Assembly: GCA_964355035.1 (NCBI GenBank)
Contig: CAYHCU010000001.1
Coordinates: 1-53,638, forward strand
DNA length: 53,638 nucleotides
Source: an uncultured Flavobacteriales bacterium
GTDB lineage: Bacteria; Bacteroidota; Bacteroidia; AKYH767-A; 2013-40CM-41-45
Direction of reading: 5' to 3'
Each line of letters starts with the position of its first letter. The stretch's first letter is position 1. This document shows positions 18,644 to 46,586 of the stretch, piece after piece. A program made the translations under genes and the position numbers. The notes beneath the pieces were generated by a model that ran no database searches, was not told the DNA's origin, and worked only from the letters and a program-made list of their open reading frames with translations.

Positions 18644-18837
18644 TAATTGAAAGTTGATAATGGACAGTTGATAATGGACAATTGATAATGGACAATTGAT
18701 AATGGACAGTTGATAATGGACAATTGATAATGGACAATTTATAATGGACAATGGATGAATGCTTACATCGCGTCAATTGTCAATTGTCAATTGTCAATTG
18801 TCCACTGTCCACTGTCCACTGTCCATTATCAATTATC
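18644..18837. repeat. Long imperfect hairpin built from heptamer-based repeats (TGATAATGGACAAT units versus AATTGTCAATTGTCC/ACTGTCC units)
   Basis: The left arm holds about seven ttgataatggaca(a/g)t units up to about 18755. The loop is tgaatgcttacatcgcg. The right arm is caattgtcaattgtcaattgtcaattgtccactgtccactgtccactgtccattatcaattatc. It fills the whole gap between two convergent genes. Confidence 0.9.
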
Positions 18838-18838
18838 T

Positions 18839-19600
18839 TCAACGGTTGACCAACACTTTTTTAATAGAAACGAAATCTTTTCCTGCAATTCGAACGAAGT
18901 ACATTCCTTGTGCAAAACTTTCAGAACTAATTACTAAATTTTTATTTTCAAACACTTCTGTTTCTGAAACAACTTCTTTTCCGGTAAAATCTCTAATGCA
19001 AATATTTACATTTTCCTTTGATGAAATATTTATAACGTCTGTTGCCGGATTTGGAAATACCTGAATCAGATCATTCGAATTCTCAATATCCGAAACTGAA
19101 TTTATAACACAATTGATTACTCGTGATGAACATAGATCACCATTCAGATAAGTAATAATTTCCGAAATATCCGGAGTACATAGTTGACCGGACAATACGG
19201 TAAACCGAACCTTCACTAATGGAGTATTATTTGGAATCGCCTGCAAACTGTTTGACGTGAAACGAAGTGTTGAATCGCCGGTATTGAAATAGGACATGAC
19301 TTGTAAATTAAAAGTCAAATTCAAAACAGTGTCAAATACAAATTTTGACTGATCATATTTCAAGGAAAAATCAACAGCGTTAATTGTATCGTCAGAACTA
19401 AAAAACAATGGAAACTCTACAGTGCTTCCAAAAACTACTGCCTGAGACAAATCAAATACAATGCTATCTGATGCATTAATTGTTTCTGTTTTATCTGTCA
19501 AAATTGGACTAGTTTCTTTATCCCCTTGAATTCCTTTTGAAGTGCCCGGAATAAAACTTCCCGCAATTGACAAAATTAGAATTGTAATTATTTTTTTCAT
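18839..19600 (-). CDS. T9SS cargo: single cohesin-like domain + C-terminal sorting domain
   Basis: 253 aa. Signal peptide; IVFDLSQAVVFGSTVEFPLFFSSDDTINAVDFSLKYDQSKFVFDTV...STLRFTSNSL; C-terminal IQVFPNPATDVINISS...GMYFVRI. Homologous to the C-terminal third of the upstream 1135-aa protein. Confidence 0.7.
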   Translation of the reverse strand: MKKIITILILSIAGSFIPGTSKGIQGDKETSPILTDKTETINASDSIVFDLSQAVVFGSTVEFPLFFSSDDTINAVDFSLKYDQSKFVFDTVLNLTFNLQVMSYFNTGDSTLRFTSNSLQAIPNNTPLVKVRFTVLSGQLCTPDISEIITYLNGDLCSSRVINCVINSVSDIENSNDLIQVFPNPATDVINISSKENVNICIRDFTGKEVVSETEVFENKNLVISSESFAQGMYFVRIAGKDFVSIKKVLVNR

Positions 19601-19702
19601 TTCCCGATTTTTTAATTAACCCAAATTTACAAATAACATTTTTTCTTATTGTCACTGCTAAATTAATTTAATGTAAACAATGAGTTAAGGCAGAGTAGTC
19701 TA

Positions 19703-19732
19703 AATAAAAAAGCCCCGGTTTTGGCCGGGGCT
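19703..19732 (-). terminator. Rho-independent terminator of the 1135-aa gene
   Basis: On the minus strand: agccccggccaaaaccggggct followed by tttttat. Plus-strand stem is 19711-19718 with 19725-19732. Confidence 0.8.
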
Positions 19733-19752
19733 AGTAATAGAAAATAAATTAA

Positions 19753-22700
19753 TTATCTGTTTAAAACAATTTTCTTTAAAGAAACAAAATTGTCATTATA
19801 AATCTTCATCATGTAAATACCATTTGATACTGACTGAAGGCTTACTTCTTGTTTTTGACCTGCATTTAAATTTGCTTGTACATAAACAATGCTTCCATTG
19901 ATATCCATTAATTGAACAATAGCGTCTTCACTTGTAAGTACGTTAATTATTCCACTTGTTGGATTTGGATAAACACTTACCTGTTGTTCGTCGGTACTGA
20001 TAGAAGAATTACGACTAGTCAATAATTCAGCATTCACTTTTTCTCCATTAAGGAAGCACTCTAATGAGCTGAAATCAGCTTCATCAAGAACACCATTAAG
20101 AGCAGAAACACGAATTGAAACCAACGATTTATTTACTTCATAGTTATTTAGGCTATAAGATGTAAATCGAAGTGTTTTGTCTTCTGTGTTTAAGTTCGAA
20201 AGTGATTGCATGTAACCTGTGTGATCAACTACTGAATTGAATTCCATATTGTCATTTCCAAATTGCATTGAAAAGTCAAGTGAATTAACAACCTCATCAG
20301 AAATTACAGACACCGGAATATTGATGTAACCATCTACAACTGTAGATTTAGTAAGATCAAAAATTACGCGATCGGATGAATTTTCTCTAAGCAATCCACC
20401 TGAACCAACAGTTGAAAAGTTACCATTTATATCACCTAACAATACTCCTTTATACGATTCCTGACTAATGATCGGGCAGTTTGCTGTTGTTGTAACAGGA
20501 ACTTCTAAACAGAAAGGAATTTGCGGAACATGAGCTTTTGAGAATCCAACTCCATCATTCGACGGGTATGTTGAAGATATCCGATAACCTACATTTGTAG
20601 CTACTGTTGTTGCATCAATAAATAACCAGTCTTTTGAAGGCTGACCATTAGATACACCGGCTGAATTATAATTCCATGCTTGACGGAATTCAGGTGTTAA
20701 CAAAATAGCTCTTTGATTAATCTGTGAAAGATCACCGGCACTTACTACACCGTCAAGATTTACATCCATTCCGATAATTTGAAATACAGAAGGAGTAAAA
20801 GTTGCATCGTTAATAAGAACACGGCGGGTAAGGAAAGCATCGAATCCGTTTATCACAGACTGAACACTGCTTGACCCAAGGATATCTCTGGAGATACTAA
20901 CAGAAGAACCATTGTGAACATTGTAATCGAATGATCCACCAAGATCCGGCTGAACTGCAACAGAAGAAAGACTTGAACAACTTGAATTGTTTCCATAGAT
21001 GTTTGAAATCAAATACGAACTTGGATTTAAAGCATCATAACGAAGTGGGCTATTGTCTAACCAGAATTTCAAACTTCCTTTGAAAGATGAATCAGCAAAA
21101 GAAATTTGTTTTCCCGGATCAGCAAGTTGTGATAACACTCCACTGAAATAACTTTCTTGAATAAACGGTAGACTAAAGTTTGCTGTATCAGCTGCGCCAA
21201 AACCAGATGTTTTGCTATATTCCACACAGAACACATTTCCTGTTCCTGTAAATTTGGTATTTGCCGGAGCTGAACCATTGAAATATAAAGAAAGGCTGAT
21301 TGAACCATTTGCAGTATCAATGCTATTGGCAACATCAACATATGAAGGATTAATCAAATCACCATATATGGTAACCATGCCTGTTGGTGATACTTTAGTT
21401 TTATCATAAAGCATAACAACATCATATCCGATAACATTCGATACAGGATTCACCGCCTGAACAGGAACACAAAGAATCGAAGACGAGCAACTGCTGATAG
21501 CAGTTGCTATTTTGTAAGGTAGAATAGTGCTTACGATATTCAATGAAACCGGAGAAGAAGTTGTTTGAGCTCCTAAGTTATCAGTTGCACGTGCAGTAAC
21601 AGAATGTAAACCTAAAACACCTGTATAACTTGCAGCATAAGGAGATGTGTTGTCTAATCCAACTGAAACTCCGTCAACAAAAAACTCAACCGATGCAACC
21701 GAACCATTGTCACTTGCATTTGCAGCAATCGCTACTACAGTACCAACAATAAAACTAGAACCGTTTGAAGGTGAAGTAATCGTTACAACAGGAGCCGGAT
21801 TGTTTGCTACTGAAATTGCTATTGCAGCCGAAGTTGTTTGAGCAGCCTGATCATCTGTTGCGCGTGCTGTTAAATTATGATTTCCTGCAACGCTGGTATA
21901 ATTTGCTGTATAAGGCGAAGTCAAATCAATTCCGATTGAAACACCATCCACAAAAAATTCCACTGAAGCAACTGAAACGTTATCAGCAGCAACAGCTGTA
22001 ACAGGAACAACTGTACCGGTAATGAAACTTGCACCATTTGAAGGAGAAGTAATTGCAACAGTTGGTGGCGGATTATTAGCAACCGTAATGGCAACAACTG
22101 CAGAAGTTGTTTGAGCACCAACGTTATCAGTTGCTCTTGCTGTTAAGTTATGACTTCCTACTATACTTGTATAGTTTGCAGTATAAGGCGATGTATTGTC
22201 AACACCTACTGAAACACCATCTACAAAAAATTCAACTGAAGAAACAGTTCCATCTGCATCAGCAGCAGTGGCAGCAATTGCTACAACTGAACCTGTAATG
22301 AAACCTGAACCACTTGCGGGTGACGTAATACTAATTGTTGGTGCAATGTTTAATGCACCAAGCGTTCCCGACAAACTTGGAATAGATAACTCACCTGCAA
22401 TTGGATTTAAAGCAACATAATTCTGAGTGCCACCACCCGGTGTTCCAATCTGAATGTTTAATTCATAATGAAATACACCATTTGTTGTCATTTGAGCAAT
22501 CAAAATACGATTTGAAGCAAGTGGTCCTGTTGAACCGGCTAATGATGCCCAAGATCCATTGCTTGTTGTCAATAAATTTCCCAAGGTTCCTGAGTTACTT
22601 AAAAAATCTAAGTCAGCTGTTGAGATACCAACAAAGGTTACCGCTTCCGGTGCTCCTGCATAAAGTCCATCTTGAGTTGTTAAAGGAATACCTGCTGAAG

Positions 22701-23160
22701 CATCTGTATTTGCAAGAATACCACTTAAATTTATTACTGTTGCTCCACCTCCCGCTACTGCATCTTCACTTTTCAAAACTCCGAAATTACCTGCACAACC
22801 TGCGCCGACAGATAACCATGAATCAAGCATTACTGTATTCAAACGTGCGTTCAATTTTGAATATGCCGGTGTAACATCTCCTCTATCTGTATTTGTATAG
22901 AATGATGTTGTTGTCGACAATGTCAAGGCATGATCAGTAACGCCATAAGCTGCCTGAAATTTATACCCCGGTAACATATCTGCATAAATACGATAAGTAA
23001 CTGAACCGATTGGAAGATTGCTTCCCATTCCGATCGCACCAATTGAATCTGCCGCATTAGATACATAATACTTTTCGACAACGATATTCTCTAACCCATT
23101 TTGTGCATGGGCGAAAAATCCTGTCATAAGAAGGCCAAAGCCTAATAATATTTTTTTCAT
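19753..23160 (-). CDS. Large T9SS cargo: unnamed N-terminal paralogous domain + 3 Ig-like repeats + 2 cohesin-like domains + dockerin-like loop + CTD
   Basis: 1135 aa. Signal peptide; residues ~21-262 shared with ORFs 30403-31485, 31644-32450 and 25854-27203; residues 274-543 are three ~90-aa repeats (ITSP.NG.SFI.G..V...A.A.D...VASVEFFVDGVS.G.D.TSPY.A.YT...G.H..TARATD); VIGYDVVMLYDKTKV and SLDFSMQFGNDNMEF cohesin-like cores; MDVNLDGVVSAGD; C-terminal VSVYPNPTSGIINVL...GIYMMKI. Confidence 0.8.
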   Translation of the reverse strand: MKKILLGFGLLMTGFFAHAQNGLENIVVEKYYVSNAADSIGAIGMGSNLPIGSVTYRIYADMLPGYKFQAAYGVTDHALTLSTTTSFYTNTDRGDVTPAYSKLNARLNTVMLDSWLSVGAGCAGNFGVLKSEDAVAGGGATVINLSGILANTDASAGIPLTTQDGLYAGAPEAVTFVGISTADLDFLSNSGTLGNLLTTSNGSWASLAGSTGPLASNRILIAQMTTNGVFHYELNIQIGTPGGGTQNYVALNPIAGELSIPSLSGTLGALNIAPTISITSPASGSGFITGSVVAIAATAADADGTVSSVEFFVDGVSVGVDNTSPYTANYTSIVGSHNLTARATDNVGAQTTSAVVAITVANNPPPTVAITSPSNGASFITGTVVPVTAVAADNVSVASVEFFVDGVSIGIDLTSPYTANYTSVAGNHNLTARATDDQAAQTTSAAIAISVANNPAPVVTITSPSNGSSFIVGTVVAIAANASDNGSVASVEFFVDGVSVGLDNTSPYAASYTGVLGLHSVTARATDNLGAQTTSSPVSLNIVSTILPYKIATAISSCSSSILCVPVQAVNPVSNVIGYDVVMLYDKTKVSPTGMVTIYGDLINPSYVDVANSIDTANGSISLSLYFNGSAPANTKFTGTGNVFCVEYSKTSGFGAADTANFSLPFIQESYFSGVLSQLADPGKQISFADSSFKGSLKFWLDNSPLRYDALNPSSYLISNIYGNNSSCSSLSSVAVQPDLGGSFDYNVHNGSSVSISRDILGSSSVQSVINGFDAFLTRRVLINDATFTPSVFQIIGMDVNLDGVVSAGDLSQINQRAILLTPEFRQAWNYNSAGVSNGQPSKDWLFIDATTVATNVGYRISSTYPSNDGVGFSKAHVPQIPFCLEVPVTTTANCPIISQESYKGVLLGDINGNFSTVGSGGLLRENSSDRVIFDLTKSTVVDGYINIPVSVISDEVVNSLDFSMQFGNDNMEFNSVVDHTGYMQSLSNLNTEDKTLRFTSYSLNNYEVNKSLVSIRVSALNGVLDEADFSSLECFLNGEKVNAELLTSRNSSISTDEQQVSVYPNPTSGIINVLTSEDAIVQLMDINGSIVYVQANLNAGQKQEVSLQSVSNGIYMMKIYNDNFVSLKKIVLNR
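21532..22341. repeat. Intragenic triplication (three ~270-nt units encoding the Ig-like repeats)
   Basis: Protein residues 274-543 form three near-identical units. The repetition also generates the string of low-complexity antisense ORFs in the track (21647-22874). Confidence 0.85.
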
Positions 23161-23194
23161 ACTAAGTGTTTTTAGATTGATTTAGATTGATAAA

Positions 23195-24880
23195 TTAATT
23201 ACAAGTTTGATTGAATTTACCAAGTAGAATCAAAAAGTCAACATTATTAGTTGTACCATCAGCATTGATATCTGTAGGACATGGTTGAAGACCTGTTGTT
23301 ACATTCAATACTTGTGTATAAGACCAATCTGATAACCAGTTTTTACCTGAACTTGCAAATGCACCTCTGTATGGAGCAATTGAATAGAAACCATCTGCAG
23401 GTGCTGTAGGACAACCTGCTGTTGACAAAGCCGGATTTGGAATTCCGTCGTACTGTGCAGTTACAATGTTTGTGCTGCTATTCATTGTCCATGTAGAACT
23501 AAATCCCGGAATTGTAGCTGCATGAGTATTTAAATCTGTAGTATAGAATTGAGCTGTATCAGTAGTAAGTAATGTACCTGCTGCATTTTTATCAATTGCA
23601 ATATCTTTGTCCATACCTACGAATGTATTACATTTCACTTTCAAACTATTTGAACCATTACCACCTGTATTCGCCCAGTTATGATATGCTTCACTTCCAC
23701 CTGTTCTTGTACCAAATGCTTTGATAAGGTTTAAACCATATCTGAAGTTTGCGAATACAGAATTGTAAATTTCACCTTCAGTAAGTTCTTTTGCTTCGAT
23801 TGCTGCAATACCACTGTTATCACTTGTTAATATTTTTTTACCATTACCAATCATTGTTACATTGTAAATGAAAGGATGAGAACGCACAAGAAGGTTTGAT
23901 TTTTGATCATCAGCATCCATTTCGAATCCATTATCAGCATCAGGACTAGTACTGATTGTATCGTTAGTAGAAGATTTAATACCGAAAGCAAATTGTATTC
24001 TTCCACTGTAACCATCATCCCAATCTAACATGTCATCATTTCCAAATAATGTAGCATAGTATTTAACATCTACCGTTCCACCAAAGAATTCAATAGCATC
24101 ATCTGCACAAGAAACAACTTCAATGTGCTCAATTGATGTACCTCTTCCAACTGATCCAAGTGTCAAGCCGTTGATTTCACCACCAACTTGTAAGTTTGCT
24201 CCTGAATGACGAATAGATACATATTTCAGAATTCCTGAATTATCGTTATCATCAAAAGTCTCACCTGCAGTTAAGTTAGCTCCAAATTGATCTTTTGAGT
24301 TTGAACTTGCAAATCCCTCGAAAGTTCCAAGACCATTTGCAACACAAAGTTTACCATCACCAACACCCGGTTGGAATGGACCGTTTGCTGCTAAAGTTAA
24401 ATTGTTTGATGCTTTTCCGGCTAACAATAAACCACCCCATTTTCCTTTGTTTGAAACAGGATATGTTCCGTCTAAATTATCAGCTTCTGCTGTAAATACA
24501 ATTTGACAAGTAGAAGAACCACTTGCGAAAATTTTACCTCCACGTTCTACTGTCAAAGCTACTGCCGAATCTGCAGTTGATCTTAAACGACCTTTGATTA
24601 CAGTTCCCGGATTAATCGTTAGTGTTTTTCCACTTGGAACGTAAATCTTTTTGTCTAATATCCATGTATGTGCGCAATCAAAAATTGTGTTAAGTGCTGT
24701 AAGTTCACCATCTGCTGCTCCTCCTGAAGTTGCAAGTGTTGAAACTAAAACCGTTGGTCTGGACGACACAGGTGTCGGACAACCGCAATCGGTTCCTAAA
24801 TTCGTTTGGGCAAATCCCGTTAGAACAGAAGCGAAGACTACTGATGCAGTCGCAACCATTTTAGTAAATGTGTTTTTCAT
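23195..24880 (-). CDS. Secreted protein of unknown family (possible parallel beta-helix) with one C-terminal dockerin-like Ca loop
   Basis: The track start at 24919 is GTG. ATG at 24880 gives MKNTFTKMVATASVVFASVLTGFAQ (signal peptide). Contains EINGLTLGSVGRGTSIEHIEVVSCADDAIEFFGGTVDVKYY...DDMLDWDDGYSGRIQF and a C-terminal CPTDINADGTTNNVDFLILLGKF. Confidence 0.55.
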   Translation of the reverse strand: MKNTFTKMVATASVVFASVLTGFAQTNLGTDCGCPTPVSSRPTVLVSTLATSGGAADGELTALNTIFDCAHTWILDKKIYVPSGKTLTINPGTVIKGRLRSTADSAVALTVERGGKIFASGSSTCQIVFTAEADNLDGTYPVSNKGKWGGLLLAGKASNNLTLAANGPFQPGVGDGKLCVANGLGTFEGFASSNSKDQFGANLTAGETFDDNDNSGILKYVSIRHSGANLQVGGEINGLTLGSVGRGTSIEHIEVVSCADDAIEFFGGTVDVKYYATLFGNDDMLDWDDGYSGRIQFAFGIKSSTNDTISTSPDADNGFEMDADDQKSNLLVRSHPFIYNVTMIGNGKKILTSDNSGIAAIEAKELTEGEIYNSVFANFRYGLNLIKAFGTRTGGSEAYHNWANTGGNGSNSLKVKCNTFVGMDKDIAIDKNAAGTLLTTDTAQFYTTDLNTHAATIPGFSSTWTMNSSTNIVTAQYDGIPNPALSTAGCPTAPADGFYSIAPYRGAFASSGKNWLSDWSYTQVLNVTTGLQPCPTDINADGTTNNVDFLILLGKFNQTCN

Positions 24881-25026
24881 TTGTTGGTTTGTTTTAGAGT
24901 TTGTAATTATTGAATGCACAAATATCTATCTTCGGTATTAGTACATCAAAAACTAAAACTTAACAAATGATTACTATAATGTTTACTGCATGTATAGCAA
25001 ATGTCAACTACATGTTAATGGGAATT

Positions 25027-25095: not shown

Positions 25096-25842
25096 TTAGT
25101 CTTTTACGCATCGGATGCTGAGGCCGTATGATTTAAGAACGTGGGAGCGAAAAACTTCAGACCTTTTATAATCCAAATAACGATACCAAGCTTCATTTCC
25201 GGAATATTCGGTTGAGGACCACCAAAATCCCATATATACTTTTCCGGTTGGTGAACTTATTGAGCCATCAAATAATCTGCATCCTCCGGCAAGTGCAGTA
25301 AAACCACTTTCATTTGTCGCCCACACTTCCCCATAAGCTTTCCAATTATCCGGTCCGGTGATTTTTAGTTTATCTCCTTCATTTGTTCCTCTCCAACTTG
25401 TTTTATCGGCCGATTCAATGCTCATACCTAAATAAATTTCCAGCTCTTTCCATTCCTGATCTGTAGGAATATGCCATCCTTCAGGTGCTAAATTATTGCT
25501 GTTATGTACAGCATACATATTATACAGAAGACCTGAATTATTGGCATTGTTATCATATTGTGAACAAGCTCCTGTTGTATCACTAGACCATGACAAATTA
25601 TCTGTTGTCGGAATAAAGTTAAGCGAATTTCCATTTCTGTATTTTGTAGTCTTCAAGTCTTCTGCCATCCACCATTGATTTCCAATTTTAATGGTCTTGT
25701 AAACATTGTTCTCAATATCTACTACAGTAGATGTTTCCGCCAAAATAATTTCTTTCTCTTTTTTACAACTGCTACTACAAATCGTAACTAAAGATAAAAC
25801 AAGAATAATAAATGAAGGTATGCTATAAATTCCTTTTTTCAT
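25096..25842 (-). CDS. FISUMP (Fibrobacter succinogenes major paralogous) domain lipoprotein
   Basis: 248 aa. Lipobox-like ICSSSC. DIENNVYKTIKIGNQWWMAEDLKTTKYRNG...GLLYNMYAV...APEGWHIPTDQEWKELEIYLG...NESGFTALAGG.R...GFWWSSTE...YGLSIRCVKD matches the TIGR02145-type pattern. Confidence 0.85.
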   Translation of the reverse strand: MKKGIYSIPSFIILVLSLVTICSSSCKKEKEIILAETSTVVDIENNVYKTIKIGNQWWMAEDLKTTKYRNGNSLNFIPTTDNLSWSSDTTGACSQYDNNANNSGLLYNMYAVHNSNNLAPEGWHIPTDQEWKELEIYLGMSIESADKTSWRGTNEGDKLKITGPDNWKAYGEVWATNESGFTALAGGCRLFDGSISSPTGKVYMGFWWSSTEYSGNEAWYRYLDYKRSEVFRSHVLKSYGLSIRCVKD

Positions 25843-25853
25843 GTGACGACTAT

Positions 25854-27203
25854 TTACTTTTTAATAATTTCAGAGGTCTGCAATGTTGCTCCGTCATTCA
25901 AAATAAAGAAATAAATACCCGAAACTAAATCACCCAAATTAATTTGACCTACATAATATCCGCTCACAACCCCAAGACTGTTTTCTAAAACCAACTCCCC
26001 AATCGAATTATAAACTGAATATTTATACTCTTTCTCCTTCTCTGCCGTAAATTGAAATATGAGTTCATTATTTACCGGATTTGGGTGAAGGTTCACAAAT
26101 TGACTTGAACTTCTACCAATACTTAGTTCCGGACAAACCATACTAATGTCTCGGTCACTACAATTGCCGGGATAGCAGCATAATCCGGGCAAATTAAAAT
26201 TTGAATTCGGATCATAATTACAAGCAAGTGTATCAGTACAACCAAAAACAATTTTCGTTTTACAGGAATCTACATTATTGCAAGTAAACGAAGCATTGTA
26301 TTCAAGAAAGCTTGCATCTACACATCCACAACTTGCAGGATATTTTAAAAATGGACTTAGTTTTACTGTATCACTATTTGTTTCTCCATCTGCAAAGACA
26401 GAAACATATTTCACAATTACAGGATTAGGGAAAGCAGGGACTTCAACTTCGATATTAAATTCAAAAGAAATATCTCCCTTAGTAGTTATCTGTGCTATAA
26501 GAACCTGGTTGCTATCAGGATTAACACCGGACACACCGGAATTCTGCAAAGCAGCATCATAACTTACAAACTCAGTACCCTGTTTTTTTGAACCAAATAT
26601 AGTTGAATCAACTCCTGAAACATCATTTACAAATCCATAATCTGCCCACGATGTTGGGATCGTAGTCATCGTATCCATACCATCTGACATTGTTAATGGA
26701 ATACCGGCATCAGGATTATTATTTGTAAGAAGACCTCCCGAGATTCCTTCACTTCCACCATCGCTGTTTATTCCACCAATGAAGGAACCACTAACATCTG
26801 CTCTCTTCAATACACCAAAATAAGTTTTCGTTGCAATTCTTGTCGTTTGTCCTAATGTCAACCATGAATCAAGAGCAACAGTATTTTCTCTTAATCGTGT
26901 TTTGGAAAAATCTTTTGCAAAACTAAGTCCATCAGCAGTATTATTAAAAATAAAATCACTGCTGGATATTTTCAGTGGATGGTTTTGATCGCCATATATT
27001 TTCCTGAGTTTAGTTCCGGGAGCCAAATCTACATAAACACGATAAGTTATTGACCCAATCTCTAATCTGCCTCCGGTAGTATCCGTAGCATCAAGACTAT
27101 CTGAAATATAATATGTCTCCACAATTACATTTTCCACTTGAGAAAATGCAAATTGAAAACTAAATAAACTTATCATTAACGTTATAAAATATTTTTTGCT
27201 CAT
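25854..27203 (-). CDS. T9SS cargo: divergent copy of the unnamed paralogous domain + Cys-rich linker + CTD
   Basis: 449 aa. VENVIVETYYISD...GSITYRVYVDLAPG...NTVALDSWLT...AGIPLTMSDG...VLIAQITTKGDISFEFNIEV. Then GCTDTLACNYDP...CCYPGNC. C-terminal VNLHPNPVNNELIFQF...GIYFFIL. Confidence 0.75.
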   Translation of the reverse strand: MSKKYFITLMISLFSFQFAFSQVENVIVETYYISDSLDATDTTGGRLEIGSITYRVYVDLAPGTKLRKIYGDQNHPLKISSSDFIFNNTADGLSFAKDFSKTRLRENTVALDSWLTLGQTTRIATKTYFGVLKRADVSGSFIGGINSDGGSEGISGGLLTNNNPDAGIPLTMSDGMDTMTTIPTSWADYGFVNDVSGVDSTIFGSKKQGTEFVSYDAALQNSGVSGVNPDSNQVLIAQITTKGDISFEFNIEVEVPAFPNPVIVKYVSVFADGETNSDTVKLSPFLKYPASCGCVDASFLEYNASFTCNNVDSCKTKIVFGCTDTLACNYDPNSNFNLPGLCCYPGNCSDRDISMVCPELSIGRSSSQFVNLHPNPVNNELIFQFTAEKEKEYKYSVYNSIGELVLENSLGVVSGYYVGQINLGDLVSGIYFFILNDGATLQTSEIIKK

Positions 27204-27236: not shown

Positions 27237-30200
27237 TCAGATCTTATATGTTAGTCCAACAATAAAATTTGTTCCGTAACGATAATTATCATAATTAAGG
27301 TCCCATCCACTCTCATAATTATAAGAGCGACGAATGGGAGAATTAAAAATATCTCTAACTGTTAAGCTCATACTAAAATGCTTGCCAATTGATTTTGATA
27401 TTTTCAAATCAAACAAATGTCTTGGTAGCTCATAGATATCCGGCACTTCTTTCACATCTGCTGCCACTACCAGGCGTGGACCTTGCACATTATAGCTTAA
27501 TGTTACAGCCAATCCTATACTATCTGAAGTATATGTAACCATACTATTCACAACAAAAGGTGCTTGCCCAAACATTGATCGACTAACAGTGTCTTGTGGA
27601 ATATAGTTTTTCACGCCACCGGATATATCCAACCTGGTTCTGATAAATTCCGTTTGAGAATAAATAAGTGAAAGATTAGCTCTGAAATCAAAATGTTTCC
27701 CAATTTTTTTTCTGCCCTCCAACTCAACTCCTGCTACTTTTGACTTATCTACATTCTGCCAACTATAGCCAACTGATTTTACTAATTCAATATGATTCTT
27801 GAATTTCTTGTAAAAGAAACTTATGGAAACATTGTTACCTGATTTTAAATAAGACTCCAAACGCAAATCGTAATTGTCAACATGAACCATTTTTAAATCC
27901 GAATTTCCAAAGACGAAAGCTCTGTATTCATAGTCAAATACCGCTACGTCTGAAAGCTCTCTGATACTTGGTCTGGCAATTGTCTGACTAAAATTAAATC
28001 TTGCATTCACCGTATTGATTTCTGAATTCTTAAGTTTATAAATAAAACTTACAGACGGTAAAAAACTAATTTCATTTAATTCACCTGCATTGGCAAGAGG
28101 CAATCCATCGCGATAATTTCTTCTTGGATCATTCTCCTGATAGTTTAAAGAATCAAACTTCACGACATCAGTTAAAATATCCGCTTTCTCTATTCTTAGG
28201 CCACCTGAAATACGCATTTTGTCAGTAATTGAATAATCAGACATGGCATATCCTGCTAAAATACTGCTATTCCCAAAGGTGTGATTCGCATCTGACAATA
28301 ATTCATTATAAAAAATATCGATAGTGTGATGCTCAACAGCATAGATATCTGTAAATGAATAAATGTTAAAATTATTAAAATCAAAAAGTTTCTCCAAATT
28401 ATCATTTTGCAATGTTAAACTTGAATAATTCCCAAAGTCAATAGAGTAATCGTATTGATCATTTTTTCGATCATTTCGTTGATATGCACTGCCGAATTTT
28501 AACTTCCTGACCAAGTCAGCCTTGTGAAAAACAGGAATTTCAAATGAAATTTGCGAATCAAATAAATTATCTGATAAATATCGATAGTATCGATGTATGC
28601 CATCTCTGATTTCAGGCCCTATTTGATACTGATCGGTAAACGGATCTTTTAAATACTGAACGTTTTTAAAATCTGGTGCGCTGCTCTTTCCGTTCGTATA
28701 AGATGCACTAAATTCTATTTTAGATTTAGACCTAGGTAAATAATGTTCAGACCTGACTTGATAGATTAATTGTTTACGTTGCTCATAGAATTGACTCTTA
28801 GAGATTACAAAATTTGATGAGTCACGATTGTCAATGGAACTTAACACATTATTTACCCCCGTGAAATTTGGCATGAACAGTAAAGAGAAACTATTATTCG
28901 TATTCAATTTATAAGATGCATTTATTAAAGCACTCCATCCATTTGTTTCTTTACTTACTTCCTGACTCATATAAGAAGAAACTACGTTAACTAGATTTCC
29001 AAAACCATCCGATGCAACACCGGCGCGATTAGAAACTGAATTAGCATCATATTGAGTAGAGCTTCCATAACGATAACCAACCATAAAGCCTAACTCGCGT
29101 TTAAATAACTTTGTTTGGTTTCCAAAAGTGAAACTCTGACTGAAATTAAGTGGCGCCTTTCTCAAAGTCGTATTCCAATTGTTTGGAAAAGATTGGCCTG
29201 ACTTTGGAACATCTGCATTCAGCACATCAAAAGCCTGATTTCTATAGGGTCCGTTATTGTAAAGTAATTTTGCGCTGTTAAAAGCATCCGGATCATTGAT
29301 CTGTGCTGGTGCTAAAAGTCCAAGTTGAACTAAACCTAATTTAAAATATGTTTCACCGGTAATTGTGCCTTCTCCCCAATTCTCTTGTGTAACTCCTAAA
29401 GAATTATAATACGAACCCAAACCTAAAGCAACAAATTCCTGATACTGGCTCGGGTTAGCTACCGAAGTTGCAAAACCGGTATGACTATGTTCTCTAAATG
29501 TATTATCAAATCCAACCCAATCTGTTGAACTTCTCTGTGAACTCAAGATATCCTTAAATGTTGATTGGCTATTATATCCAATCGAAGTTTCCACAATTAC
29601 ATTGAGCTGCTCCGGAAAATCTTTTGTTTGAACTGAAAGATATGCACCTGACCAGTCGCCGGATAAATCCGGGCTCGCAGTTTTGGTGATAATAATGTTG
29701 TCTACTAAACTTGCAGGAAACAAATCCAACTTAATATTATTTGTGAAAGGATCTAATGTTGGTATTCGCAATCCGTTAATTGCCGTTTTTACATATCTGT
29801 CTCCAATTCCACGTACTGTAATGAAACTTCCATTCGTTGATACTCCACTTACTCTGGAAATTGCAGCAGAGACGCTTGCATCACCTGTTTTTTTTATTGT
29901 TTCTGAAGAAATAAAGTCAAGTGTAGTTGCTGAATTTCTTTTCATGCTTTCAACATAATACTCTCTCGCTTTCACTGCTTTTGATGTAATGACAACTTCA
30001 TTGATCTCTTTTGAAGATGACTTAAGTACAAAATTTCTAATTACTACTTGACCTTTAACAGGATTTACTGTTTCTTCTACTTTCAAATAACTTATCGAAG
30101 AAATTATTAGCTCTTGAGAAGTACTGTCAACAATTTTTAATGAGTAATTTCCATCGAAATCTGTTATTGCACCAACCGTTGGCTTGGACTTTAAAATAAC

Positions 30201-30320
30201 AGCTGCGCCAATCACTGTTTCACCATTTTCATCAGTAATCTTACCCCTAATGGTGCCTTGGCTAAAAATTAAATTAGCAAAAATTAAATTTACCAGAATG
30301 ACAAGAAGTGCCTTTTTCAT
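27237..30320 (-). CDS. TonB-dependent receptor with N-terminal carboxypeptidase-regulatory-like domain (no SusD partner)
   Basis: 1027 aa. Signal peptide; GTIRGKITDENGETVIGAAVILK...ITDFDGNYSLKI (CarboxypepD_reg-like); plug region TLDFISSETIKKTGDASVSAAISRVSGVS...ITVRGIGDRY; long beta-barrel ending ...GLTYKI. Confidence 0.9.
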   Translation of the reverse strand: MKKALLVILVNLIFANLIFSQGTIRGKITDENGETVIGAAVILKSKPTVGAITDFDGNYSLKIVDSTSQELIISSISYLKVEETVNPVKGQVVIRNFVLKSSSKEINEVVITSKAVKAREYYVESMKRNSATTLDFISSETIKKTGDASVSAAISRVSGVSTNGSFITVRGIGDRYVKTAINGLRIPTLDPFTNNIKLDLFPASLVDNIIITKTASPDLSGDWSGAYLSVQTKDFPEQLNVIVETSIGYNSQSTFKDILSSQRSSTDWVGFDNTFREHSHTGFATSVANPSQYQEFVALGLGSYYNSLGVTQENWGEGTITGETYFKLGLVQLGLLAPAQINDPDAFNSAKLLYNNGPYRNQAFDVLNADVPKSGQSFPNNWNTTLRKAPLNFSQSFTFGNQTKLFKRELGFMVGYRYGSSTQYDANSVSNRAGVASDGFGNLVNVVSSYMSQEVSKETNGWSALINASYKLNTNNSFSLLFMPNFTGVNNVLSSIDNRDSSNFVISKSQFYEQRKQLIYQVRSEHYLPRSKSKIEFSASYTNGKSSAPDFKNVQYLKDPFTDQYQIGPEIRDGIHRYYRYLSDNLFDSQISFEIPVFHKADLVRKLKFGSAYQRNDRKNDQYDYSIDFGNYSSLTLQNDNLEKLFDFNNFNIYSFTDIYAVEHHTIDIFYNELLSDANHTFGNSSILAGYAMSDYSITDKMRISGGLRIEKADILTDVVKFDSLNYQENDPRRNYRDGLPLANAGELNEISFLPSVSFIYKLKNSEINTVNARFNFSQTIARPSIRELSDVAVFDYEYRAFVFGNSDLKMVHVDNYDLRLESYLKSGNNVSISFFYKKFKNHIELVKSVGYSWQNVDKSKVAGVELEGRKKIGKHFDFRANLSLIYSQTEFIRTRLDISGGVKNYIPQDTVSRSMFGQAPFVVNSMVTYTSDSIGLAVTLSYNVQGPRLVVAADVKEVPDIYELPRHLFDLKISKSIGKHFSMSLTVRDIFNSPIRRSYNYESGWDLNYDNYRYGTNFIVGLTYKI

Positions 30321-30402: not shown

Positions 30403-31485
30403 TTAGTTTTTAATTATTTTTTTATAACTTTCAATTCCATTTACGGATACTTTAACAAAATACTGTCCGACAGGCAATTTAGAAATATCGACTTTCTCCA
30501 CTTGAATACCGGAAATTTTTCCAATGTTTTTAGAAATGACTTCTGTACCAAGAATATTATAAATTGAATAAAATGCATCACCCTTATTTTCTACTGATTT
30601 AATTTCAAGACTGAAGCTATTCATTGTAGGATTAGGGAAAACATTAATTTCCGGATAAGTTATTGGTTTAGTAGTACTAATGCTGTTAAGCACAGAATAT
30701 GTCAGAAACGCTTCTTGAATTTCAGCACCTACAGGATTACTTGCAACATAATTCTCGACACCTCCATTAGGAGTTCCAACTTGAATATTTAATTCAAAAG
30801 AAAAATCTCCGTTCGTTGTTATTTGTGCGATTAACACTTTATTATCAATTGTATCCGGACCGATTGAACCATTTAATGATGCCCATGAACCATTGATTGT
30901 TGAAAATACAGGGCCATTTGTTCCATCATTTTGAGCATCGAACATTGCCATCTCAGTAGAAATACCTACGGCAGTTAATGCTTCAGGAGTACCGGCTAAA
31001 AGTCCATCCTGAATTGTCAAAGGAATGCCGGCAGTTGCATCATTATTTTGCAATACTCCATCCGCATTTACAACATTATTGTCTCCATCATCTAATGACT
31101 TAAGGATACCAAAATTACCGGTACAGGCTGCGCCTACCGATAACCATGAATCAAGCATTACAGTATTTTGTGAAGCCTGATTTTTATTGTATGTCGGTGA
31201 AGTTGCTCCGCGATCTTCGTTATTAAAAAACAAGGTAGTTGTTGCGATTCGAAGTTCGTGATCAGGAACACCATAAGCAGCCTGAAATTTATATCCTTGG
31301 AGTAAGTCTGCGTAAATTCTATAGGTTACAGAGCCAATTGGCAAAACTCCGCCTGTTAAATTTTGAGTAGCATCATTTGCATCTGAAACGTAATATTTTT
31401 CTACAATTACGTTTTCTAATCCATTTTGAGAATGGGCAGAATATGCAGATAAAAGAAAAAAGAAAGCTGGTATAATTTTTTTCAT
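30403..31485 (-). CDS. T9SS cargo: unnamed paralogous domain + CTD
   Basis: 360 aa. GLENVIVEKYYVSDANDA...GSVTYRIYADLLQGYKFQAAYGV...NTVMLDSWLSVGA...AGIPLTIQDGL...NGSWASL...VLIAQITTNGDFSFELNIQVGTPNGGVENYVASNP. C-terminal INVFPNPTMNSFSLEI...GQYFVKV. Confidence 0.8.
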   Translation of the reverse strand: MKKIIPAFFFLLSAYSAHSQNGLENVIVEKYYVSDANDATQNLTGGVLPIGSVTYRIYADLLQGYKFQAAYGVPDHELRIATTTLFFNNEDRGATSPTYNKNQASQNTVMLDSWLSVGAACTGNFGILKSLDDGDNNVVNADGVLQNNDATAGIPLTIQDGLLAGTPEALTAVGISTEMAMFDAQNDGTNGPVFSTINGSWASLNGSIGPDTIDNKVLIAQITTNGDFSFELNIQVGTPNGGVENYVASNPVGAEIQEAFLTYSVLNSISTTKPITYPEINVFPNPTMNSFSLEIKSVENKGDAFYSIYNILGTEVISKNIGKISGIQVEKVDISKLPVGQYFVKVSVNGIESYKKIIKN

Positions 31486-31643: not shown

Positions 31644-32450
31644 CTAATTCAATTCACGACTATTATAAATTAATTTCTTAAATTGAATTTCAGCTCCGAT
31701 TGGATTTTTTGCCACATAATTCTCGACTCCACCAAAAGGAGTTCCTAATTGAATATTCAATTCAAAACTAAATTCACCATCAGTGGTAACCTGAGCTATT
31801 AAAACTTTATTTGTTGAATCGAGACCAACGGAACCTCCAAAAGATGCCCACGATCCATTCTCAGTAAAGAAAGTTTGTCCTTTACTGTCAGGTGCATTTA
31901 TCCCAAATGCTGCTAATTGTGTACTATCTAATCCAAAAACAGAAACAACTGAAATTGGAGAGGCGCGATATAAGCCATCTTTTGAACTAATCGAAATACC
32001 ACACAACGGATCTGAATTTTGTAATAACCCATCTACATTGACAATAGCACTAGTTGTATCTTTTGATTTTAAAACAGCAATATTAGCTTCCGAACCTGCG
32101 CAAACTGATACCCACGAATCAAGCATGACCGTGCTTTTCGTCAATCGAATATTGGGTATATCATTTGCTGTAAATCCGCCGAATTCTTCATTGTTAAAAA
32201 AATAAGTAGACGTTGAAAGCTTTAAAGGGTGGCCGGTTACACCATATGCTGCTTGAAATCGATACCTGGGAAGCATGTCCACAAAAATCCGATACGTTAC
32301 CGAACCGGCATGCAAGGCCTCGTTGCTCCCTATCTCATCAGCTTTATCAGAAATGTAGTATTTTTCAATAAAAATGCCTTCCAGACCTTGCTGTGCTTTT
32401 GCTAAAGCACCTTGCATTAATATTAATACCCCGACTAAATAGATTTTCAT
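31644..32450 (-). CDS. Secreted protein consisting only of the unnamed paralogous domain (no CTD)
   Basis: The track start at 32489 is TTG. ATG at 32450 gives MKIYLVGVLILMQGALAKAQ (signal peptide). GLEGIFIEKYYISDKADE...GSVTYRIFVDMLPRYRFQAAYGV...STVMLDSWVSV...NGSWASF...VLIAQVTTDGEFSFELNIQLGTPFGGVENYVAKNP. Confidence 0.75.
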   Translation of the reverse strand: MKIYLVGVLILMQGALAKAQQGLEGIFIEKYYISDKADEIGSNEALHAGSVTYRIFVDMLPRYRFQAAYGVTGHPLKLSTSTYFFNNEEFGGFTANDIPNIRLTKSTVMLDSWVSVCAGSEANIAVLKSKDTTSAIVNVDGLLQNSDPLCGISISSKDGLYRASPISVVSVFGLDSTQLAAFGINAPDSKGQTFFTENGSWASFGGSVGLDSTNKVLIAQVTTDGEFSFELNIQLGTPFGGVENYVAKNPIGAEIQFKKLIYNSRELN

Positions 32451-43574: not shown

Positions 43575-46500
43575 ATGAAGAAATTATTTTCTGCGGCAAT
43601 TCTATTGCTCATGTCCTGGACATCTAGTGCACAAACATTCTACTGGAATGGGAATTCCCCGATTTTTGATAATACTACAGATACAGTTCCAATTGTGGTT
43701 TCTGGTTTACCAACAGTGATTGATACAAGTTTTGGAGTTGCTCATATTTGCATGAATATTACTCATACTTACAAAGCCGATTTGTTGATCAAATTAGTTT
43801 CACCAAGTGGTTTATCCGTTACTCTTATTTCCGGTATTGGTGGATCTGCTGATAATTTCTTGGGTACATGCGTGGGAATGGACGGAACATCGTTTAGTAA
43901 TTCACAAGCTCCATACACAGGAATATTTCTTCCAACGGGTGATGTAAGTTTATTTAACAACGGACAAAATCCAAACGGAACATGGCTCTTCATTGTGAAA
44001 GATCAGGCAACTGCAGATACGGGTTCTATCCATCAGGCAAGTATTGTTTTCGTAAATAATCCTCCTGTGAACGGAAACACCGGTGGTGGTGGTGGCCCAA
44101 CAGGAACTTACAATTGTCCGACTTGTGTTTGTCCGGGTGGAGCTGCAGGATGCGATCTTCTTCCTGACATGACATCTTCTGCAAAAGAAATTTTGGTGAA
44201 TCATAATGAAACCCCCGGAGCACTATACATTTCTAATGCTACTCCTAATATCGGTTATGGTCCAATCGACATCTTTGGAATTGACTCTTGCTTTTGCGGA
44301 ACAACCTATGTACCCTGCGGAACTGTTTGTCCGAATGGTCAGGACATAAAGCATATAGTTAAACAACGTATCTACCAAAAAATTCCGGGACAAGATACAC
44401 TGGGATTCTATGATCGCATAGCTGGCGCAATGACTTATCATGCAACGCATGGTCACTTACATGTTGATCATTGGGCAAATTATACATTGCGAACTGCAAC
44501 ATCTAATCCTGATGCAACCACATGGCCTATCGTTGGTACGGGTGTGAAACAAAGTTTTTGTCTAATTAATCTTGGAACATGTTCAGGAAATCCCGGAGAA
44601 TGTGTAGACAATAACGGAAATACACTAACAACTTTCCCGAATAACAATCTCGGTTTTCATACCGGTTGCGGACTTACGCAAGGAATTTATCCGGGTAATT
44701 ATGATGTTTACAGTATTTCACTTAACGATCCTATTCCATTAGTCAACGTTTGCAACGGACTTTACTACATTGTCTCTATTACTGACCCCGATAATAATTT
44801 CCTGGAAAGCGATGAAACAAATAATTGGGTCGCTGTTCCAATTACACTTACACAACAAAACAATTCACCAACTATCACCGCAAGTGGTTCAACATTAATT
44901 TGCCAGGGTAGCAGCGTCACACTTACTTCAAATACTGCGAGTAATTATCTGTGGTCAACCGGCGCAACAACTCAATCAATTGTGGTTTCTTCTGCAGGAT
45001 CTTATACAGTGTCTTCGAATTGCGGTACTTCGGTTGCAACTTCTTCTCCGGTTATTGTATCAATTATTCCATTAAACACAACTGCAACTGCAAGTCCAAC
45101 ACCTGTTTCCTGCAATGGTAATTCAATACAATTAAATGCAAATGCAACTTCCGGAGGAACACAGAATGTTCCGCTTACATTTAGCAGTAATTTGCAAGTT
45201 GTAATTCCTGATAACAATGCTACAGGAGTTACTTCTGCTATTACGGTTTCCGGAATTAATCCTGCAACGTTAACTGCGTCTTCTGTAGTTTCAGTAAAAC
45301 TTAATCTTACTCATACTTATGACGGCGATCTTGCTGTCTCTTTAATTTCTCCTTCCGGAAATACTATTTTTCTTAGTAACCGTCGGGGAAGTGGAGGTGA
45401 TAATTTTATCAATACCGTTTTTTCAATGTCTGCTGCAACATTGGTAAGCGCCGGCACTGCTCCTTTCACTGGTTCATACAAACCTGATGGAACTTTTAGT
45501 TCGCTGACAGGAAATGCAAATGGAACCTGGCTATTGAAAGTACAGGATCTTGCCGGTGTTGACACAGGAAGAATTCAAAATTGGAATATAATTATCAATA
45601 CAGCAGTCCCGGAGACATTCAATTATTCCTGGACAAGCATTCCTGCGGGATTTACTTCTTCATTACAAAATCCAACTGATATTCCAATAATATCAAGCAC
45701 TTATTCTGTTGTAGTAACAAGTACCGGAACAGGTTGCACAACTACAAATTCGGTTTTAGTATCTGTACCGGAAGTTCTAACAATTTCCGGTTTCACTCCG
45801 GCAAGTGGTGTACCTGGAACATTAGTTGTAATTAATGGTTCCGGATTTACTTCTGCATCATCGGTTAGTTTCGCCGGAATAAATGCAAGTAGTTTCACAG
45901 TAATCAGTCCAACACAAATTGAAGCAATCGTTCCCAATAGCGTAGCAACAAGTGGTGTTATTTGCATAACCAATAACACTGGCTGTACTGTTTGCAGTAT
46001 TTCCAATTTCACTATCAATTCCGGAATAACATTAAACCTGAAATTATACCTCGAAGGATTTTATATTTCAAGCGGAATTATGCAAGCCTCTGTTGATCCA
46101 ATTAGCTATCCAACTTTGTGCGATACTATTGTTGTTGAATTGCATCAGGCGACTTCGCCTTACAGCTTTGTTCAGAGTTTTAAAAGTACGATCAATACTG
46201 CCGGTGAAGGAAGTTTTGTTTTCCCATCTAATCTTTTGAATAATTCATATTTCATCAGTGTACATCACCGGAACTCTATTGAAACATGGAGTGCCTCACC
46301 GGTAACATTTACAACGGCAATAACAACCTATATCTTCAGCGATGCAATTACCAAAGCACAAGGAAACAATATGCGAAATCTTGGTGATGGTAATTTCGCC
46401 CTTTTCTCAGGCGATGTAAACCAGGAAGGCACTGTTGAATTTATCGACATGAATAGCGTACAAAGTGCATCTTTGATCAACTTAATCGGCTATCAACCAC

Positions 46501-46586
46501 AAGACCTCAATGGCGATGGTATTGTTGAATCTGCAGATTATAGCTTAGTAGAAAATAATTTGCTGAAGTTTAAGGTTCGGCCGTAG
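43575..46586 (+). CDS. Secreted multidomain protein: P domain + lysyl-oxidase-like catalytic domain + P domain + IPT/TIG + dockerin-like pair
   Basis: 1003 aa. Two proprotein-convertase P-domain patterns (ITHTYKADLLIKLVSPSG...NGTWLFIVKD.A..DTG; LTHTYDGDLAVSLISPSG...NGTWLLKVQDLAGVDTG). YHATHGHLHVDHW, VKQSFCL and GIYPGNYDVY...ITDPDNNFLESDETNNW are colinear with the LOX catalytic domain. ISGFTPASGVPGTLVVINGSGF (IPT). GDVNQEGTVEFID and DLNGDGIVESAD. Confidence 0.7.
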   Translation: MKKLFSAAILLLMSWTSSAQTFYWNGNSPIFDNTTDTVPIVVSGLPTVIDTSFGVAHICMNITHTYKADLLIKLVSPSGLSVTLISGIGGSADNFLGTCVGMDGTSFSNSQAPYTGIFLPTGDVSLFNNGQNPNGTWLFIVKDQATADTGSIHQASIVFVNNPPVNGNTGGGGGPTGTYNCPTCVCPGGAAGCDLLPDMTSSAKEILVNHNETPGALYISNATPNIGYGPIDIFGIDSCFCGTTYVPCGTVCPNGQDIKHIVKQRIYQKIPGQDTLGFYDRIAGAMTYHATHGHLHVDHWANYTLRTATSNPDATTWPIVGTGVKQSFCLINLGTCSGNPGECVDNNGNTLTTFPNNNLGFHTGCGLTQGIYPGNYDVYSISLNDPIPLVNVCNGLYYIVSITDPDNNFLESDETNNWVAVPITLTQQNNSPTITASGSTLICQGSSVTLTSNTASNYLWSTGATTQSIVVSSAGSYTVSSNCGTSVATSSPVIVSIIPLNTTATASPTPVSCNGNSIQLNANATSGGTQNVPLTFSSNLQVVIPDNNATGVTSAITVSGINPATLTASSVVSVKLNLTHTYDGDLAVSLISPSGNTIFLSNRRGSGGDNFINTVFSMSAATLVSAGTAPFTGSYKPDGTFSSLTGNANGTWLLKVQDLAGVDTGRIQNWNIIINTAVPETFNYSWTSIPAGFTSSLQNPTDIPIISSTYSVVVTSTGTGCTTTNSVLVSVPEVLTISGFTPASGVPGTLVVINGSGFTSASSVSFAGINASSFTVISPTQIEAIVPNSVATSGVICITNNTGCTVCSISNFTINSGITLNLKLYLEGFYISSGIMQASVDPISYPTLCDTIVVELHQATSPYSFVQSFKSTINTAGEGSFVFPSNLLNNSYFISVHHRNSIETWSASPVTFTTAITTYIFSDAITKAQGNNMRNLGDGNFALFSGDVNQEGTVEFIDMNSVQSASLINLIGYQPQDLNGDGIVESADYSLVENNLLKFKVRP

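Follow-up and report, generated by a model that had tools for sequence, protein, structure and literature searches.

A putative cohesin-dockerin scaffold at the end of a TonB-receptor gene cassette in an uncultured Flavobacteriales bacterium

We analysed a stretch of 53,638 nucleotides (hereafter the window) from an uncultured Flavobacteriales bacterium (contig CAYHCU010000001.1, assembly GCA_964355035.1). The host genome is a Bacteroidota metagenome-assembled genome of 3.6 Mb in 545 contigs and is 76% complete. On the minus strand, where the whole finding lies, three adjacent genes encode proteins that carry cohesin- and dockerin-type modules and that we refer to by the working names P1, P2 and P3. 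P1 (18839..19600) has 253 residues and comprises a signal peptide, one cohesin module and a type-A C-terminal domain (CTD) of the type IX secretion system (T9SS). P2 (19753..23160), with 1135 residues, comprises a head domain, three Big_7 repeats, a first cohesin (cohesin A), a dockerin-type module, a second cohesin (cohesin B) and a CTD. P3 (23195..24880) is a secreted beta-helix protein with a type-I signal peptide and with neither CTD nor lipobox, which ends in a single dockerin repeat. The genes of P3, P2 and P1 form the 3′ end of an eight-gene cassette that includes a TonB-dependent receptor. An earlier note, made from the sequence alone, had read pieces of cohesin and dockerin into these three neighbours; the motifs it quoted were all found in place on the minus strand, and Pfam matches across orthologues, together with AlphaFold models, bear the claim out.

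The modules were scored against Pfam and NCBIfam profiles, with cut-offs of 24.1 bits for Cohesin (PF00963), 22.9 bits for Dockerin_1 (PF00404) and 23 for TIGR04183. AlphaFold2 models of the P1 family and of P2 residues 541-1062, which are predicted and not experimental structures, were compared with the Protein Data Bank (PDB) using Foldseek. Family-specific hidden Markov models (HMMs) were used to count cohesin A, cohesin B, the P2-type dockerin and the P3-type tail in the host genome. The order-level comparison covered 146 genomes of the same order, with 19 other species in the host's own genus. The cassette survey yielded 80 loci from species-representative genomes, with at least 165 genomes matched, all of them metagenome-assembled and from uncultured Bacteroidota with no cultivable carrier among them, and modules and CTDs were tallied over 81 related loci. 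Because the modules are conserved family-wide and are matched at the level of fold, and not by single motifs, we took their identity as more than chance.

The head domain of P2, about 250 residues at the N terminus (N-dom; 22336..23103), is common to three other proteins of the cassette, and the three Big_7 immunoglobulin-like (Ig-like) repeats follow it (21526..22335; PF17957, 4.9e-51; PDB 9x9r and 3pdd). Cohesin A (21046..21519, residues 548-705) is a single-copy module in the genome. Its relationship to cohesins is visible only through fold comparison and Pfam scans of individual orthologues. The P2 model, with a predicted local distance difference test (pLDDT) score of 87.6 and a predicted TM-score (pTM) of 0.77, matches type I cohesins of clostridial cellulosomes (5NRM, 4UYP, 3UL4, 6KGC and 1G1K) with TM-scores of 0.74-0.77 and root-mean-square deviations of 3.1-3.5 Å, and 9 of 15 cohesin A orthologues match Pfam Cohesin at E <= 1 (best 4.8e-5). 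The overall best Foldseek match of the model was CohI9-X-DocII of CipA (4fl4_C, 2.9e-10; also 3kcp_A), where the alignment to 4fl4_C gains little beyond a single cohesin (TMq 0.30 vs 0.23-0.24). Cohesin B (19996..20382, residues 927-1055) is a paralogue of the P1 cohesin (HMM 121 bits; BLASTP 32% identity, 1e-34).

The cohesin module of P1 (19106..19468, residues 45-165) is of the B type. It lies marginally above the Pfam Cohesin cut-off (24.3 bits, residues 57-139) and scores 26.2 bits in a six-frame search. At least 55 proteins of about 250 residues each make up the P1 family, and 25 of 48 relatives match Pfam Cohesin, the best at 4e-8. The leading PDB matches of the family model (pLDDT 87) are almost all cohesins (2w1n at 1.3e-8; 2jh2, 4dh2, 5k39 and 2xdh), with TM-scores, normalised to the target, of 0.5-0.63, and they include non-cellulosomal cohesins of Clostridium perfringens and Archaeoglobus fulgidus. 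The nine-stranded jelly-roll beta-sandwich of about 140 residues that defines the cohesin fold appears in the predicted structures of both proteins; by these models, P1 and P2 carry genuine, very divergent cohesin-fold modules. The note's two cohesin-like cores in P2 are therefore both accounted for, cohesin A by its fold and orthologues and cohesin B by its paralogy to P1, and its description of P1 as a single cohesin-like domain with a CTD agrees with Pfam, the AlphaFold2 model and TIGR04183. The cohesin-profile scan that it had proposed gave a score above the cut-off for P1 and no direct match for cohesin A or cohesin B, whose orthologues and paralogue, respectively, do match.

Between the two cohesins of P2 lies the dockerin-type module (20671..20892, residues 757-830). 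The calcium loop that had been noticed in this protein, MDVNLDGVVSAGD, is present and is not an isolated loop: it is the second repeat of a complete dockerin-type module, which matches Dockerin_1 with both repeats covered in 15 of 15 orthologues (best 1.2e-6). The second loop (DVNLDGVVSAGD, 20743-20781) is canonical and invariant. A PDB profile search with the module returned only dockerins among its top matches, with both repeats aligned (residues 3-74 of 4dh2_B). The dockerin is, moreover, the best-conserved part of P2, with a majority fraction of 0.79 and 28% of positions invariant, among them the helix positions SQINQR. We also considered whether the segment preceding it is an X module and rejected this, because at about 50 residues, with three short strands only, it is too short compared with the Ig-like X module of about 100 residues; P2 does not contain a type II X-dockerin dyad of the CipA type.

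P1 and P2 are both T9SS type-A cargo, as the earlier note had claimed for the cohesin carriers. Their CTDs lie at 18842..19060 (P1; PF18962/Por_Secre_tail, 2.2e-13; TIGR04183, 46.3 bits) and 19756..19974 (P2; PF18962, 2.6e-13; TIGR04183, 41.4 bits), and the genome encodes the secretion system itself (SprA, 521.8 bits; GldM, 59.7 bits) together with at least 150 type-A CTD proteins. Since so many CTD proteins are present, the adjacency of T9SS cargo genes is expected on its own, and we rejected it as a signal in itself.

In the host genome, the family HMMs find one cohesin A, two copies of cohesin B (in P2 and P1), one P2-type dockerin and one P3-type tail. Across the order, 66 of the 146 genomes have the P2 mid-region; the same 66 and four others, 70 in all, have cohesin B, usually in exactly two copies. 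Within the host's own genus the genome sets of P2 and cohesin B are identical. P1 and P2 come and go as a pair and are an optional addition to the cassette.

We are evenly balanced on whether these two proteins make up a cohesin-dockerin scaffold that is optional and complete in itself, with its contacts made in cis or with the small partner P1, on a probable phosphate-scavenging uptake cassette. In the cis arrangement, the conserved P2 dockerin would engage its own cohesin and produce a rigid stalk; in trans, it would engage the cohesin of P1 or of another P2 and build a small surface lattice. A fixed dockerin-cohesin contact is suggested because the dockerin is the best-conserved part of P2 and because the modelled multi-domain stretch of 522 residues reaches a high pTM without long low-confidence linkers. 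The T9SS-anchored scaffold would present the head domain next to the TonB receptor, and the cassette itself would most likely capture a nutrient for import, possibly phosphate esters. The modules would form a closed, cassette-specific set rather than an open docking network, with the dockerin repeat of P3 and the dockerin tags of the type found on a LOX-like protein elsewhere in the window using other partners.

Several observations weigh against this scaffold. The window's own cohesin A has no match to Pfam Cohesin, and a PDB sequence-profile search with cohesin A found no cohesin; the corresponding search with the P1 family returned no significant cohesin, 2ccl and 1ohz appearing at E 0.5. 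As an isolated segment, the P2 dockerin scores 21.8 bits against Dockerin_1, under the cut-off, over profile positions 10-54 of 57, and its first calcium loop is degenerate, with ligand positions 1 and 5 lost (GSSSVQSVINGFD). Cohesin B, one candidate partner of the dockerin, is the least conserved module of P2 (0.51). Finally, in two genomes of the comparison set, G497 and G498, the cassette is otherwise whole and its P3 bears the tail, but P1 is missing and the P2-position protein has, in place of cohesins and dockerin, either SprB repeats or a PhoX domain together with HYR and SprB; in a third, G520, P3 is the last cassette gene. The core function of the cassette therefore does not require the cohesin and dockerin modules.

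The sequence likeness to cohesins and dockerins is marginal, and on an alternative account no cohesin-dockerin binding takes place: the cohesin folds would act as stalk or spacer, or as ligand binders resembling carbohydrate-binding modules (CBMs) or Ig-like domains, and the DxNxDG loops would be calcium sites that stiffen the chain. The compact predicted arrangement without Pro/Thr linkers, the position of the P2 modules among Ig-like repeats, the poor conservation of cohesin B and the existence of cassettes without cohesin or dockerin modules are all consistent with it. Non-cellulosomal cohesin- and dockerin-like modules are, besides, said to be mostly without known partners; Peer et al. 2009 (FEMS Microbiol Lett) reportedly surveyed such modules with that outcome for most of them. 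Against this, the dockerin helix surface SAGDxSQINQR is invariant in 63 to 71 orthologues, beyond the need of a bare calcium site, P1, which consists of an anchored cohesin and nothing else, shows strict co-inheritance with P2, and mini-proteins with a double dockerin are encoded between P2 and P1 in nine loci. We consider an absence of cohesin-dockerin binding unlikely, while regarding it as the likeliest alternative to the scaffold.

The cohesin-dockerin scaffold that we prefer has its closest structural relative in the C-terminal CohI9-X-DocII fragment of the scaffoldin CipA from Clostridium thermocellum (3KCP, 4FL4), where cohesin and then dockerin likewise stand on one anchored scaffold polypeptide; the second calcium loop and the helix of P2 are canonical. 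P2 differs from CipA in belonging to a Gram-negative organism, with a T9SS CTD instead of S-layer homology (SLH) or sortase anchoring, in lacking an Ig-like X module and Pro/Thr linkers, and in having a degenerate first calcium loop and a dockerin placed between two cohesins. Its locus is without glycoside hydrolases and is centred on a TonB receptor, and its sequence likeness lies at or below Pfam thresholds. A cellulosome was rejected as an explanation, since the cassette proteins contain no glycoside hydrolase or CBM family. Closest in concept are the known non-cellulosomal modules (A. fulgidus 2XDH; C. perfringens GH84C and GH33, 2W1N, 2JH2 and 2VO8): they, too, are divergent cohesins from systems that are not cellulolytic, and a single protein often contains both cohesin and dockerin, as here. 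P1 and P2 stand apart from them as a constant pair, inherited together and added to a defined uptake cassette, and are exported by the T9SS; their locus also has a Cys-clamped half-dockerin subtype. In the literature we found no description of T9SS-anchored cohesin-dockerin proteins in a TonB cassette and nothing on a "GC-type dockerin".

To our knowledge, detailed accounts of cohesin-dockerin assembly come almost exclusively from the cellulosomes and amylosomes of Gram-positive bacteria, and we know of no partners for the many 'orphan' cohesin and dockerin modules found elsewhere. The cassette offers a small closed set, in which T9SS-anchored proteins that are strictly co-inherited bear one dockerin and two types of cohesin, and its hosts are abundant uncultured Bacteroidota of freshwater, soil and sludge. 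With so few possible pairings, the proposed contacts are directly testable with a handful of recombinant modules.

P3 has 561 residues counted from its ATG, in a frame of 574 residues opened by GTG at 24919. It matches nothing in the Pfam and NCBIfam libraries, its relatives being annotated as Beta_helix_4. A PDB search with a profile of 18 P3 relatives gave no match, a search of sequence representatives with P3 returned only close Bacteroidota relatives, and an NCBIfam scan for a named C-terminal dockerin-type anchor found none. As the earlier note had it, the protein ends in a single loop: the last 28 residues (23198..23281; CPTDINADGTTNNVDFLILLGKFNQTC) hold one Dockerin_1 repeat (17 bits, profile positions 36-53 only), and nothing upstream of this tail is dockerin-like. 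Having one repeat, the tail is therefore a half-dockerin and not a member of Dockerin type I (PF00404). Double Cys-clamped dockerins occur in nine other loci, and the tail corresponds to their second repeat. The tail is flanked by two Cys and is kept in 66 of 66 orthologues examined; both Cys are lost together in five orthologues, which suggests that they form a disulfide clamp. Conservation is higher in the tail than in the body of the protein (0.77 vs 0.63).

The beta-helix family to which P3 belongs is large, with 6453 clusters at 50% identity and a relative in 244 of 401 sampled Bacteroidota genomes. In all 16 loci fetched from this phylum sample (L086-L098), the beta-helix gene adjoins a homologous TonB receptor, and the best NCBIfam match of the receptors beside the family is the TonB-Xanth-Caul model. 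The anchoring device of the beta-helix protein varies among these 16 loci: a T9SS CTD in 11, a lipobox in two and a Cys-clamped tail in three. Because the tail alternates with CTD or lipobox, it may itself be some attachment or sorting device. In the lipobox-type relatives, the lipobox is accompanied by an acidic export signal.

What the tail might attach to is suggested by its company. The head domain is present in every tail-type locus (the 66 orthologous loci together with L083-L085, L100, L101, L103 and L105) and in none of the 13 loci whose beta-helix protein is of the CTD or lipobox type. This distribution fits a role in which the Cys-clamped half-dockerin would bind the T9SS-anchored head domain, or the TonB receptor, instead of a cohesin, and so hold P3 at the receptor. 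The higher conservation of the tail relative to the P3 body fits as well, as do two head-domain proteins of genome G103 that themselves end in the tail. These, of 492 and 382 residues, lie in a cassette variant, locus L084 (G103:C43:198000-217999), together with a beta-helix protein that likewise has the Cys-clamped tail at its C terminus; the next gene there encodes a 2358-residue protein with two head domains, EF-hand/TSP3 repeats, two MAM domains and a CTD. Against a head-domain or receptor contact stands the fact that this is co-occurrence only, among loci that are related. Mutual information between the variable tail columns and all P2 columns was flat across domains in 63 paired orthologues (0.105-0.141), without cohesin enrichment, and hence uninformative; although N-dom scored highest, the difference is marginal (0.141 vs 0.105-0.131). 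The export signal of P3 is a Sec signal peptide only, which leaves its crossing of the outer membrane unaccounted for. For P3 alone, we judge this proposal rather doubtful.

The occurrence of P3 is, in any case, not tied to that of the cohesins. A tail-bearing P3 is kept, with its tail intact, in G103, G497 and G498, which are 100% complete, and in G520, which is 94% complete, and all four are without cohesin A, cohesin B and the P2 mid-region. Where genomes with a tail-bearing P3 but without P1/P2 cohesins were tested, Pfam Cohesin matched nothing (in G103, nothing genome-wide). A weak cohesin B match in G103 (E 0.074) was discarded as spurious, as it sits in a cytoplasmic decarboxylase-like open reading frame.

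Dockerins with two repeats are found outside the cassette. The LOX-like protein (43575-46586) carries a C-terminal 'X-Doc' tag, composed of a support domain and a two-repeat dockerin (46017..46583, plus strand), and matches Dockerin_1 above the cut-off with both repeats aligned (23.6 bits, profile positions 2-57). This LOX-type tag, about 185 residues long, is present ten times in the host genome, never on a CTD-bearing protein; the copies besides that of the window are at C358, C5, C99, C33, C26, C81, C124, C3 and C182. It occurs in 92 of the 146 order genomes, with up to at least 23 copies per genome. Both P2 and the tag are found in 49 genomes, P2 without the tag in 17, the tag without P2 in 43 and neither in 37, and in the host's own genus all 19 other species have the tag, compared with nine of 19 for the cohesins. 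Since the tag is so common in genomes without them, the P1/P2 cohesins cannot be its obligatory receptors. Neither the P3 tail nor the LOX-type tag depends on the P1/P2 cohesins in its phyletic distribution.

A further group of dockerins is more closely associated with P1 and P2. In nine loci a Cys-clamped double dockerin forms the C terminus of a protein, eight of these being small secreted Ig-like proteins of 143-297 residues (L007:11913-12737, L009:3184-4077, L011:5801-6385, L012:5264-5830, L013:11927-12505, L021:7461-8015, L027:1762-2454 and L057:15473-15904) and one a protein of 1360 residues (L051:3558-7640). The genes lie mostly between P2 and P1; the window contains no such gene. In L014 and L033 a head-domain protein ending in a LOX-type tag is encoded inside the cassette, between P3 and P2, and in L043 a LOX orthologue adjoins P1. 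Judged by their placement, these double-dockerin and tagged proteins are local hints that the cohesin sockets are in use.

These dockerins bear on the wider idea of the earlier note, in which the T9SS-anchored P1 and P2 cohesins would recruit P3, the LOX-like protein and other dockerin-tagged proteins that lack a CTD. The division of anchors is what such a network would need: CTDs are found on none of the 80 proteins with a dockerin-type C terminus and on 143 of the 168 cohesin proteins in the 81 loci, where the two kinds adjoin each other. The exchange of the beta-helix tail with CTD or lipobox, which makes it look like a means of anchoring, the small Ig-like proteins with double dockerins between P2 and P1, the tagged proteins of L014, L033 and L043, and the ratio of ten LOX-type tags to few cohesins in the host genome point the same way. 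We nevertheless regard the network as improbable, because a tail-bearing P3 persists in four genomes without cohesins, the LOX-type tag is found in 43 P2-less genomes and missing from 17 P2-positive ones, the covariation of tail and P2 is flat, the export of P3 is explained only as far as the Sec step, and one repeat is by definition not a dockerin. The clustering with a TonB receptor that the note had pointed out is real, and is conserved as a cassette; the partner network is the part that is not supported. As the neighbouring dockerin-like tags are not explained by the P1/P2 cohesins, the half-dockerin tail and the LOX-type tags, at ten to at least 23 per genome, must have other receptors, and this negative result matters as much as the closed set formed by P1 and P2.

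The remaining genes of the cassette, all on the minus strand, precede P3, P2 and P1. They encode, in order, a head-domain protein without CTD (31644..32450), a head-domain protein of 360 residues with CTD (30403..31485), the TonB-dependent receptor (27237..30320), a second head-domain protein with CTD, of 449 residues (25854..27203), and a FISUMP-domain lipoprotein with a lipobox-like N terminus (25096..25842; PF09603, 1.6e-43). The same eight genes occur in the same order on two long contigs (L001/L002) and in most of the 80 genome loci, and the host genome has the head domain in only four proteins, all of them in the cassette. The receptor has no SusD partner; its best match is the TonB-Xanth-Caul subfamily model, below the cut-off of that model, and it scores 69.6 bits against the SusC/RagA model, for which the cut-off is 368. 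The cassette shares with SusC/SusD loci and the 'utilisome' complexes of Bacteroidota the arrangement of a TonB-dependent transporter amid genes for surface accessory proteins. It differs from them in having no SusD and in that its accessory proteins, instead of being lipoproteins, carry an unnamed head domain and belong to the T9SS cargo.

A hint as to the substrate comes from the P2-position protein of G498 (L100:10512-14444), which contains a PhoX domain (27.1 bits, cut-off 24) along with a head domain, Big_7, HYR, SprB and a CTD, and has no cohesin or dockerin. The PhoX link suggests a role in phosphorus acquisition; that the cassette serves to acquire phosphate, or phosphorus more generally, is our guess. 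A comparable gene pairing is known from Caulobacter crescentus, where the outer-membrane lipoprotein ElpS (CC0170) is encoded beside the TonB receptor CC0171, is induced by phosphate starvation and is linked to extracellular phosphatase activity (PMC2996285). The likeness is one of gene pairing, a gene for a surface-attached secreted protein standing next to a TonB receptor gene. A type II secretion system assists the release of ElpS, which is a lipoprotein; P3, by contrast, lacks a lipobox and has a half-dockerin at its C terminus. Somewhat speculatively, the T9SS-anchored cohesin-dockerin scaffold could be an upgrade of an ElpS-like TonB phosphate scavenger in which P3 is held by a disulfide-clamped half-dockerin that recognises the head domain and not a cohesin. 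We think this combined proposal unlikely. If it is true, the dockerin repeat would have a second use that does not involve cohesins, and Bacteroidota would have a third means, next to CTD and lipid anchor, of attaching proteins to their surface.

A second protein of the window, encoded at 10565-12442, had been listed with the LOX-like protein as carrying a complete pair of dockerin loops. The LOX-like protein has such a pair, as described above, and the claim holds in part for 10565-12442, which scores 25.5 bits against Dockerin_1, above the cut-off, with only one repeat aligned (profile positions 30-53) and its two loops about 64 residues apart. It is a PKD-rich T9SS cargo protein with a cohesin-like segment after the loops, matched by neither Pfam nor the cassette cohesin HMMs, and its inter-loop stretch (NWSSQPANDW) resembles the segment that follows the P2 dockerin (NGQPSKDW).

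P2 and P1 are divided by a terminator-like GC-rich hairpin on the minus strand (19711..19732; eight pairs, seven of them G-C), followed by the T-run TTTTTATTT. P1 may be transcribed on its own; in other genomes it is found as far as about 5 kb further along. On the other side of P1, an array of GGACAAT/TGGACA heptamers (18644-18837) fills the gap between P1 and the convergent gene at 16313-18643, and this array gave a run of spurious promoter-like matches.

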